From NCBI GenBank assembly GCA_951406725.2, contig OX597828.1, positions 57,350,001 through 57,414,000 of the forward strand: a stretch of 64,000 nt of DNA. Reading direction: 5' to 3'. A program made the translations under genes and the position numbers. Source of the DNA: Octopus vulgaris. Its lineage: Eukaryota. Position 1 is the first letter of the stretch; the number at the start of each line of letters is the position of its first letter. Below are positions 2,952 through 59,767 of the stretch, piece after piece. A model generated the notes under the pieces. It did not search any database. It was not told where the DNA came from and saw only the letters and a program-made list of their open reading frames with translations.

Positions 2952-3413
2952 CTAAAAGGAAGAAACTTTCTCTGCCGTATACAATAAATAAATGAATACA
3001 ATTGAAAATACAGTTAAGTTTGCAATGACAAATTTTAGAATTATGTCATCAAGTCGGCTGTAATGGAACATGCATTTTCCAACACTTCTTCCTGGCATGT
3101 TCGTTTTGAATACAGGATTGGATTTTTCCTCAGATATTGAAATATCTGCAATTTGGTCATTGCGTGACGTGATGTTACATTGATGTGACGCTTTCAATTT
3201 GTTATTATCAGATGATGACTGATTTACATACAACTTGCTTATGATCACCGAACCAATTGTAGCGATACCACATAAAAATGATAATACCATTATATACAAA
3301 ACAAGAAGCAAGGGCTTTTGTGAATATATCAATGGGTCTTCCTCAATTTGTGCAAGGTACAAGATATTTGATAAAAATATTGTCGTTGCTAGAGTAACTT
3401 TTTCACCTGATTC
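2952..3413 (-). pseudogene. 5'-truncated chemotactile-receptor-like Cys-loop gene fragment (M2-M3-M4 only)
   Basis: Open frame ESGEKVTLATTIFLSNILYLAQI...LLVLYIMVLSFLCGIATIGSVIISKLYVNQ...IADIS...RLDDI aligns with the C-terminal halves of the three intact genes. An in-frame stop lies at 3417-3419, and no ECD or M1 was found upstream. Confidence 0.85.
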
Positions 3414-3430
3414 ATGTTATGTTTGGAGAT

Positions 3431-3635
3431 GGTCATAATTTTGCACTTAACCACACCAACTATGTACATGGTCTTCACTTTAGCTTCATGATTCTTATTT
3501 TCGTATCATTTGCCTCAAATTTTCTCTCACACATCTCGTGTGATATCTGACAAAGGACACAAAATAAGAATAATAATTAAGCTGATGTGAAGAGCAAGCA
3601 TACAGTTTGTGTGGTTAAATGGCAAGAATATGACT
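3431..3635. mobile_element. MITE-like foldback element
   Basis: Imperfect inverted arms of about 70 bp: gtcataattttgcacttaaccacaccaactatg...attcttatttt versus aaaataagaat...catacagtttgtgtggttaaatggcaagaatatgac. Confidence 0.6.
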
Positions 3636-56869: not shown

Positions 56870-57225
56870 AGTTGAGTTCTTAAACTTACAGCCGCCACCA
56901 AAAGCTCCACCTCATTGGCTTCCATGCAACCTTTCTCAACCAAAGATGTGTAATGGCACAAGACTTGTTGTAAATGAATTAATGAGAAGTATCATACAGG
57001 CCACAAAAATGTCTGGCTGTGCAAGAAATGTTTATACCACACAGTTCATTAACAAGTCCTAAGGACAGAGTTTGCGAGTTACAGGCTTGCAATTAGAAAA
57101 CGACTGTTTCTCACACGATCAGTTATATGTTGGGACATCCAGTGTGAGGGGCAAGAACGATCTTTTCATTTTTACCCCTACTGGTAAAACCCCGAAACAT
57201 TGTCTATACAGACGTTTTTACCATG
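56870..57225 (+). mobile_element. Helitron PIF1-helicase C-terminal relic
   Basis: Translates, with frameshifts, to FLN.....[25 protein letters not shown]...CFSH.QLYV..S, NIVY..V. Confidence 0.8.
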
Positions 57226-58564
57226 AGATCAAGAAACTAAAATTTTAAGAATGATTATTAACTTGGAACTGATATTGTCAACGTCACACTATCTTCGTTT
57301 CACAAAAGTTATGTGTACGTTTGTTTGTTGTAATAGTTAAGTCCAATAAATTATACGACATATGTTTTTAGTTTTCCCCGAACATTTCTTTACTTATCTT
57401 GTACTAGACATAAGCCAAAGTCTCTGCAATGTTTGCTTCATTTATAGACTGAAATACTACAGATCATAGATCAGACGTTTATGTACACCCATGATAATAC
57501 TGGCCAGAAGAAAAGAGCTCTATTGTCTACATGAAAGTTAACAACTATTTCATATATATATATTAGATGCAATTATAACTGAATAAATTTCAATATTCAT
57601 AGTATTCATATATATATATATATATATATATATATATATATATATATTTCAAGAGTTCTTGCTCCTTCTTCAGTACCTCATCCTACACATCGAAATATTA
57701 TCGAAGGTTAAAAAATTGATAATGATTGTATATACATATTGAAGTCTTATAAGCCTTTTATATACTTTGTAGTATATATTCTATATATACTGTGATTTGA
57801 GTATGCATGTGTATATTTATATGCGTATATGTGTATGTACTTTATGTAAGCAGGGGTGATAGTTGATGACTGTTTGTTATATGAGTTTTGTGGTGGGAGA
57901 ATTCGTTTGCCTCACTCATTAAGGTGACGATAAATTACTACGGTTTTGTTCACTTCAATTACAATATCTGGTTTCAATTAAAATCCATCAAAATGTAGTT
58001 GTACCTGGATAGACACAGATATTTTTATATATACCAAATGTTATGGTTTGGTCCATATATGTACCAAAGAAACTATTTAAAATGTCATGAGATGGAAATC
58101 TCAAAACAGCAGACATAATAATCTTTGATACTCCACGACATCACTTTGATATTCTGAAGAGGAGTTCATTAAAGGCTTGTGCATTTTCATACAACCCAAT
58201 GCATTCCTATTTGTTGCAGCAGAGAAATAATCTTGAACATATAATTCATAAATATCGCTGATCAGATTGTCTGTTTTACGCCAATAAATCTTACGTGAAA
58301 TGTCATACATGTCTTCAATTATGAAAATGTTTGCTATCAGTCTTGAAATTCAAATTCCAGCATTATTTGCGTAAACCTTAACTCACTCCATTAATACTTT
58401 TTTTTTTATTAAAGACCAAAGTTTTCGTGTGGATTGCACCATCTTTAAAGAAATACTGAGCCAACATTAAATGTTCTGTTATTCCCCCTGGACGAACGTA
58501 GCATTTCACAGATCATATACTAGGTTTCCAGAGAAATATTTTGAAATAAATATTGTTGAACTTG

Positions 58565-59767
58565 TTACTCCAGTGGTGTAAATAACAAAGTGGTAAATAA
58601 TATTGAAAATATAATCGATATAACAATACCAATTTTCAAGAATATGGCATCCAGTCTTACGTAGTCGGAGATACAATTTCTCTTTTTCTTACTTTGAAGT
58701 TCCTCTGCAATTAGAGATTCGGATTTTACCGTGGAAATCATTGAAATATCTGCAACGTTCTTACTTTGAGATTTGTTTTTGTTGAGGTCTGTCGAAACCG
58801 ATTTCTTTTCCCTAGATGACCGATTAATATACAACTTGCTTATAACCACCGATCCAAGCGTGACGATACCACTTAACATTGACAATAACATTAAATACAA
58901 CATGAGAAGTGAAGGATATCTTGAATTTTTTGGTGTATTCTTATCGATTTCGACAAGATATAAAACGTTTGATAAAAATATGGTCGTGGCTAGAGAAACT
59001 TTCTCTCCTGATTCAGGCGGAAGAACAAATACGAAAATGGTTAAAATAGTCATCATTACAGTCGGAATCAGCATAGCTATGATTCCTATCGTAGGTTTTC
59101 GTTGGAGATACATCACCGCAGCTGCCTGACTACCCTCATCATTTTCTGCAGATACCACTCCAAACATGTTGACATCCCACTTGTAGTTTTCTGTAACATT
59201 TAGATTTTTGTAATACATTGTTTGTATTCTCGTTTGACGAATAGAATGCACAGCAACGCACATATGTATTTCGCATCTATGCTCATCAAATGGATACGTA
59301 TAAGCGTTCACTTGGCAATAGGTCTCTATGTACTTAAGAGACCACATCTCGACAGTTCCATCATGATAAATCTTGACTTCTTGATCGGTATTGGCATCAC
59401 CTGGTTCATTCACTGAATTACACATTATAAGAGATGGGGTCCATATTTCATGTCTTGGCAGATTTATTTCTGTAATGTTGTTATAGTCCGATGGTTTCCA
59501 GATTAGATATGCGTCGATCCAATATGGCGCAATCATATACCGAGCCATGAGTATGTTATTTACGAAGTCCAAATCATAGAGTGTGTGAAGATCCAAATCA
59601 GTATATATATCGACAGAAGTGATCAAATTAATAACAGGTCTTATATCTTTTCTGTAATTCAACAGCAGGTTGTCTTTCAATCGTATTTCATCCTCGTGCG
59701 TCGGAAGAGATTTTACTGTTAATATAATCGAAGTCAAACTGAAAACAAAATATGTTATGAACATCAT
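58565..59767 (-). CDS. Atypical nAChR-like Cys-loop channel subunit (chemotactile-receptor-like), 400 aa, uninterrupted CDS
   Basis: First ATG at 59767 (the track start at 59773 is TTG). Signal peptide, CQVNAYTYPFDEHRC, PESGEKVSLATTIFLSNVLYLVE, four TMs, no vicinal cysteines. Closest to the 41374-42576 gene. Confidence 0.93.
   Translation of the reverse strand: MMFITYFVFSLTSIILTVKSLPTHEDEIRLKDNLLLNYRKDIRPVINLITSVDIYTDLDLHTLYDLDFVNNILMARYMIAPYWIDAYLIWKPSDYNNITEINLPRHEIWTPSLIMCNSVNEPGDANTDQEVKIYHDGTVEMWSLKYIETYCQVNAYTYPFDEHRCEIHMCVAVHSIRQTRIQTMYYKNLNVTENYKWDVNMFGVVSAENDEGSQAAAVMYLQRKPTIGIIAMLIPTVMMTILTIFVFVLPPESGEKVSLATTIFLSNVLYLVEIDKNTPKNSRYPSLLMLYLMLLSMLSGIVTLGSVVISKLYINRSSREKKSVSTDLNKNKSQSKNVADISMISTVKSESLIAEELQSKKKRNCISDYVRLDAIFLKIGIVISIIFSILFTTLLFTPLE

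Follow-up and report, generated by a model that had tools for sequence, protein, structure and literature searches.

Genes in the window and the surrounding array

The window, i.e. the whole analysed stretch of 64,000 nucleotides of Octopus vulgaris DNA, holds three intact chemotactile receptor (CR) genes and one truncated copy, all on the minus strand:

25996..27186, minus strand: gA, intact CR gene, 396 aa in a single frame
41374..42576, minus strand: gB, intact CR gene, 400 aa in a single frame
58565..59767, minus strand: gC, intact CR gene, 400 aa; a second Met at 59764 is a possible alternative start
~2952..3416, minus strand: gD, pseudogene fragment of 154 codons, M2 to M4 only

The original prediction had named three intact genes of ~400 aa plus a truncated copy at a spacing of 15-23 kb, each coding sequence being uninterrupted. 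Frames and alignments bear this out. The distances from stop to stop along gD, gA, gB and gC are 23.0, 15.4 and 17.2 kb, and gA, gB and gC each run from start to stop as a single frame that aligns end to end with octopus CRT1. Intron-free refers to the coding sequence only, a property that is also described for CRs in the accessible part of PMC13174522. Neur_chan_LBD (PF02931) and Neur_chan_memb (PF02932) score above the Pfam cut-offs in all three intact proteins, which are 53-65% identical to one another. The three conform to the layout of a Cys-loop channel, with signal peptide, ligand-binding domain and four transmembrane helices. No Pfam family was matched by the gD fragment, and tblastn revealed no fifth receptor copy in the 64-kb window.

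A genome search located the window at C15:57,350,001-57,414,000 of genome G000. It returned at least 31 matches, at least 27 of them within 0.51 Mb (C15:56.91-57.42 Mb); 104 of 159 candidates were scored, and hence the array counts are lower bounds. The array stretch comprises at least 24 matches with long open frames and at least three broken ones, the window being one end of the array. Identity to gC is 49-100% for ten of the intact members and 28-33% for the other fourteen. For O. bimaculoides chromosome 15, a cluster of 26 receptor-like genes expressed in suckers is described (PMC9068888, accessible part). Since our array matches this published cluster, the window genes are assigned to the known octopus CR cluster.

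Spacers between the receptor genes

The surroundings of the genes had been predicted to be a "TE desert". Understood as transposon-poor this is wrong, as four of nine scanned flank frames match mobile-element families. The flanks contain 8% tandem and at least 23% interspersed repeats as well as microsatellites and transposon remnants. The term is correct only if it denotes a stretch that is poor in genes and composed of repeats. One of the elements is the following:

3..1903, plus strand: broken LINE-type retroelement (RVT_1, E 3e-17)

Further copies of it are located at ~13475-14603 and ~36896-37760, with self-matches of 77% and 94%, respectively. Remnants of a GIY-YIG endonuclease, a DDE transposase and a reverse transcriptase are found at 48806-49456, 39480-39806 and 40223-40648 of the window. 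Moreover, two local duplications are present (16636-16846/17436-17646, ~800 bases apart; 47129-47427/47714-48013, ~585 bases apart). A common 5' exon or promoter block upstream of gA, gB and gC was considered and rejected, the upstream matches being repeats with the exception of a proximal block of 255 bases shared by gB and gC.

Relationship to CRT1 and orthology

A PDB search using gC returned octopus CRT1 (E 9e-149), squid CRB1 (1.5e-43), 5-HT3A (3e-34) and nAChRs (2e-30). The AlphaFold model of gA (mean pLDDT 79.7, based on a 34-sequence alignment) was compared to known structures by Foldseek, and the top match is again CRT1 (8eis, rmsd 2.0 A over 287 columns). Squid CRB1 (PDB 8EIZ) is likewise a member of the CR family, but far more distant than CRT1, with 26% identity to gA in the structural alignment.

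The phylogenetic tree comprises 162 proteins. Besides the array genes it includes a single-frame relative that is unlinked to them and all those fetched with a length of 320-570 aa, minus the gB duplicate. It was midpoint-rooted after 379 alignment columns had been kept. gA, gB, gC and CRT1 fall into one clade (support 1.0). A clade of 61 sequences (support 1.0) contains all 24 intact array genes and none of the five vicinal-cysteine receptors. The outgroup is an uncurated set that includes only these five and no canonical octopus nAChR; four of the five were looked up, and nAChR names are carried by three. A phylogeny with CRs and nAChRs had been proposed as a test that could refute the reading as a sensory-receptor array. 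With this uncurated outgroup the genes nest with CRT1 and the reading is not refuted; it is supported by CRT1 as best relative, by the tree position and by the larger array.

None of gA, gB and gC is the CRT1 orthologue. This assignment was rejected because L004, ~85 kb outside the window, groups one-to-one with CRT1; its extracellular domain is 86% identical and seven of the eight CRT1 pocket residues are kept. Counterparts in the O. bimaculoides cluster exist for gA, gC, gD and the tail of gB. gA pairs with P0002/P0178 (338 of 396 residues identical to P0178; orthologue XP_014779524.1/A0A0L8GND3), gC with P0005 (88% identical; XP_052829359.1), the gB tail with P0009 (XP_052829360.1) and gD with the intact P0018 (82% identical; XP_014786443.1). 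The exact sequence of gB is present in the public protein collection; for gA and gC no exact sequence was found there. The window genes are new members of a known, well-described family whose cluster, structure and sensory role have been published, so that the array itself will not surprise a specialist. Most CRs have no published ligand in the literature surveyed, and it is plausible that gA, gB and gC are uncharacterised orphans.

Ligand pocket and pore

Acetylcholine binding by nAChR alpha subunits involves the vicinal cysteines of loop C and an aromatic box, which includes the loop A Tyr, the loop B Trp and the loop C Tyr. In an alignment with the five vicinal-cysteine receptors, the loop A Tyr, the loop B Trp and the loop C Tyr-x-Cys-Cys are absent from all three intact proteins. 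An identity as canonical nAChR alpha subunits was rejected on the grounds of these missing vicinal cysteines and aromatic box residues. The Cys-loop fold, a Cys loop of 15 residues and the GEK motif before M2 are shared with canonical alpha subunits. In contrast, loop C is shortened, by six residues in gB as well as gC and by ten in gA, and the window genes are single-frame.

CRT1 of O. bimaculoides (PDB 8EIS, 9E6B-D; UniRef100_A0A0L8FVQ9) belongs to the same array and clade as the window genes. It resembles their products in length, in the lost acetylcholine site and in four matching extracellular cysteines (116, 151, 165, 170). M1-M3 is 84-89% identical, whereas the extracellular domains are only 48-51% identical. 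The PPESGEK pore motif, a mark of cation selectivity in this family, is conserved in the window proteins. Position 104, which is involved in calcium tuning, is acidic in gA and gC and Asn in gB.

Eight pocket positions of CRT1, namely Y39, Y58, W122, F124, L153, S169, L191 and F192, are given in the accessible parts of 10.1101/2025.03.03.641191 and 10.1101/2025.10.28.685082. In this order the residues are:

CRT1: YYWFLSLF
gA: TIVFTYYS, one of eight kept
gB: ILWLLMGI, two of eight kept
gC: DMWLVLEG, one of eight kept

The pocket of gA thus reads T39/I58/V122/F124/T153/Y169/Y191/S192 in CRT1 mature numbering, and that of gC contains the acidic residues D39 and E191. Aromatic residues occupy three of the eight positions in gA and one each in gB and gC, compared to five in CRT1. 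As the pockets are less aromatic than that of CRT1, the term "hydrophobic ligand" is not automatically transferable to them. Moreover, loop C of gA is four residues shorter than that of CRT1, a deletion common to the orthologues P0002 and P0003 from two other taxa.

Loss of gD

gD lacks the signal peptide, the ligand-binding domain and M1, and starts abruptly at 3414 after an in-frame stop. The break is adjoined by a repeat:

3415..3700, no strand assigned: repeat-derived sequence, high-copy by contig depth

Between 3512 and 3682 the summed contig depth of run X10 increases from 52 to 1184. Single contigs cross the junction in three of four runs (X10, X11 and X12, representing three organism labels and two studies), the fourth run giving short matches only. 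Since the junction is bridged in three runs, the break is not an assembly error. A displaced 5' part of gD was not found by the genome search. A functional pore-only product was rejected as well, given the in-frame stop ahead of the fragment and a first Met that is situated within M3.

The counterpart of gD is intact in O. bimaculoides (P0018) and in a relative (P0020), which makes this a lineage-specific loss. No report of it was found in the literature searched, to which the main CR papers and their supplements did not belong. The loss means that CR repertoires differ between Octopus species.

Probable gene conversion between gB and L003

L003 (C15:57,420,662-57,421,834) lies ~7 kb past the window end and 29 kb from gB, with gC in between. 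It shares a segment with gB:

41643..42588, minus strand: putative gene-conversion tract gB/L003, 946 bases, covering signal peptide, ligand-binding domain and M1-M3

A two-breakpoint fit on the DNA sets the tract limits to -11 and +934 relative to the gB start. DNA identity is 94.1% within the tract and 68.3% outside, and the 5' flanks are 67% identical. At the protein level, identity amounts to 87% in the extracellular domain, 96% in M1-M3 and 57% in the tail. Correspondingly, dS is 0.08-0.14 in the tract versus 0.66 in the tail. Synonymous third-position differences number 14 in 262 inside versus 10 in 43 outside (p 0.0005, for a test boundary at codon 312 picked from the gB-L003 pair itself). 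The CRT1 clade has ten genes, and the remaining 44 pairs do not behave alike; the next lowest p value is 0.049, in the opposite direction.

The trees of the two gene parts are in conflict. The head tree unites gB with L003 (bootstrap 100), while in the tail tree gB groups with P0009 (bootstrap 100) and L003 with P0006 (98). The head of gB thus groups with a gene of its own genome and not with its orthologue. In AU tests on 13 proteins the two orthology trees were rejected for the tract (p <= 4e-6), as was every one of the five conversion trees for the tail (p <= 2e-4). Of the two donor types, that of L003 was rejected (p 0.008), whereas that of gB was not. The contrast in identity and the conflicting head and tail trees point to gene conversion. 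Based on these sequence comparisons, the ligand-binding domain and the pore were likely copied in this way.

The same similarity could stem from a recent whole-gene duplication or from an assembly error, and it is true that the tract ends are read from one assembly and that the boundary at codon 312 is derived from the tested pair. We regard this as very unlikely. A whole-gene duplication does not agree with a 5' flank of such low identity and a tail with a dS of 0.66, nor with tails whose one-to-one partners are two different genes of O. bimaculoides. A collapsed assembly, in turn, would not yield 14 synonymous differences in 262 codons.

Subsequent to the presumed conversion, gB and L003 have accumulated 30 residue differences up to position 295 (of ~293 residues). 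About 29 of 35 extracellular replacement changes fall into segments 34-62 and 151-203, which contain six of the eight pocket positions. In the extracellular domain pN equals pS (0.072), compared to pN 0.015 and pS 0.130 in M1-M3; for residues 151-203 pN is 0.178 versus a pS of 0.103 that rests on ~3 synonymous changes. Positive selection after conversion is not established by pN/pS in this pair, the equal extracellular values being compatible with relaxed or positive selection. A weaker pattern of similar kind is seen for P0006 and P0009 of O. bimaculoides (77% identity in the head, 54% in the tail), a hint at an earlier or parallel conversion event.

A more general scheme, which we put forward tentatively and with slightly more doubt than trust, is that CRs are rebuilt by domain conversion, the recipient promoter and cytoplasmic tail being kept, and that selection then re-diversifies the pocket. 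Within this scheme gA would be a conserved subunit with short loop C and more polar ligands. Conversion of CR genes was not found in the literature searched, a search that did not extend to the main CR papers and their supplements. For cephalopod protocadherin clusters, which are also tandem arrays, homogenisation by gene conversion has been proposed (accessible part of PMC9068888). These belong to an unrelated family, however, and the CR case concerns one tract mapped between two named paralogues. The 30 differences between gB and L003 form a small set for mapping ligand specificity and, if the conversion reading is true, a natural experiment. Moreover, conversion can distort orthology and selection analyses that treat CRs as whole proteins.

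Proposed function of gA, gB and gC

According to the accessible part of PMC11526382, CRs form homo- and heteropentamers that are activated by hydrophobic molecules and in which the pore is constant and the pockets vary. Out of five CRs screened against 800 lipids, only CRT1 gave a robust response to sex steroids (10.1101/2025.10.28.685082, accessible part). We consider it very probable that gA, gB and gC are paralogues of the octopus CR array near CRT1 and encode pentameric cation channels of the sucker that are gated by a contact chemical other than acetylcholine. By analogy to CRT1 and CR840, the subunits would assemble as five-subunit channels in sucker sensory cells. A surface-bound, non-acetylcholine chemical would bind between subunits and open the channel, and calcium and sodium entry would lead to nerve activation. 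Since gA, gB and gC share only one, two and one of the eight pocket residues with CRT1, respectively, a constant pore combined with variable pockets would likely allow each subunit to recognise a different ligand set. The array itself would evolve by birth and death, gD being a lost member, plus, likely, gene conversion followed by renewed divergence of the pocket segments.

As a variation on this reading rather than a replacement, one or more of the three proteins, chiefly gA, might act as accessory subunits that retune CRT1-like partners in mixed pentamers. The short loop C of gA in three taxa and the replacement of the conserved back-wall residue L153 by T would fit such a role, and the highly conserved pore region among the paralogues would permit subunit mixing. 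Furthermore, CRT1 and CR840 are highlighted as the subunits that are functional as homomers and well expressed (10.1101/2025.03.03.641191, accessible part). On the other hand, the extracellular domain of gA is 81% identical to that of its O. bimaculoides orthologue, its aromatic residues at 124, 169 and 191 agree with gA having its own pocket, and expression systems have allowed at least five CRs to be probed (accessible part of 10.1101/2025.10.28.685082). An accessory function is possible, though rather doubtful. That gA, gB and gC are divergent neurotransmitter receptors inside the nervous system and not environmental sensors appears extremely improbable. Public records of their orthologues are indeed named acetylcholine or 5-HT3 receptor-like, but such names are automatic, as the cluster of CRT1 itself includes a record "acetylcholine receptor subunit beta-like 2". 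Moreover, the residues that bind the transmitter have been lost, and expression in suckers is described for the published cluster (accessible part of PMC9068888).

Other receptor loci in and outside the array

All of the following positions refer to G000. L007 (C15:57,262,364-57,263,551), a neighbour of CRT1, exhibits PPESGKK instead of PPESGEK before M2. This exchange of Glu to Lys at the charge-selectivity ring is common to P0014, P0022/P0181 and P0019, and it may lower cation conductance or change selectivity in mixed pentamers. L014, L019 and L023 (C15:56.98-57.04 Mb) are divergent and have plus-strand orientation, in contrast to the remaining 21 intact members, which are on the minus strand; in L023, moreover, the motif before M2 is altered (PPDTKQK). 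Two pairs of very close paralogues, L011/L012 and L020/L021 (C15:56.91-57.13 Mb), are located in the distant half of the array. Their short tree branches reflect either recent duplicates or further conversion events. Broken or partial copies are L026 (C15:57,284,893-57,286,046), L028 (C15:57,109,949-57,110,389) and a copy at C15:57,116,980-57,117,294, two of which have several stops. L027 (C25:41,333,375-41,334,280) is an unlinked Cys-loop receptor with an open frame of 575 codons and without vicinal cysteines, positioned outside the CR clade.
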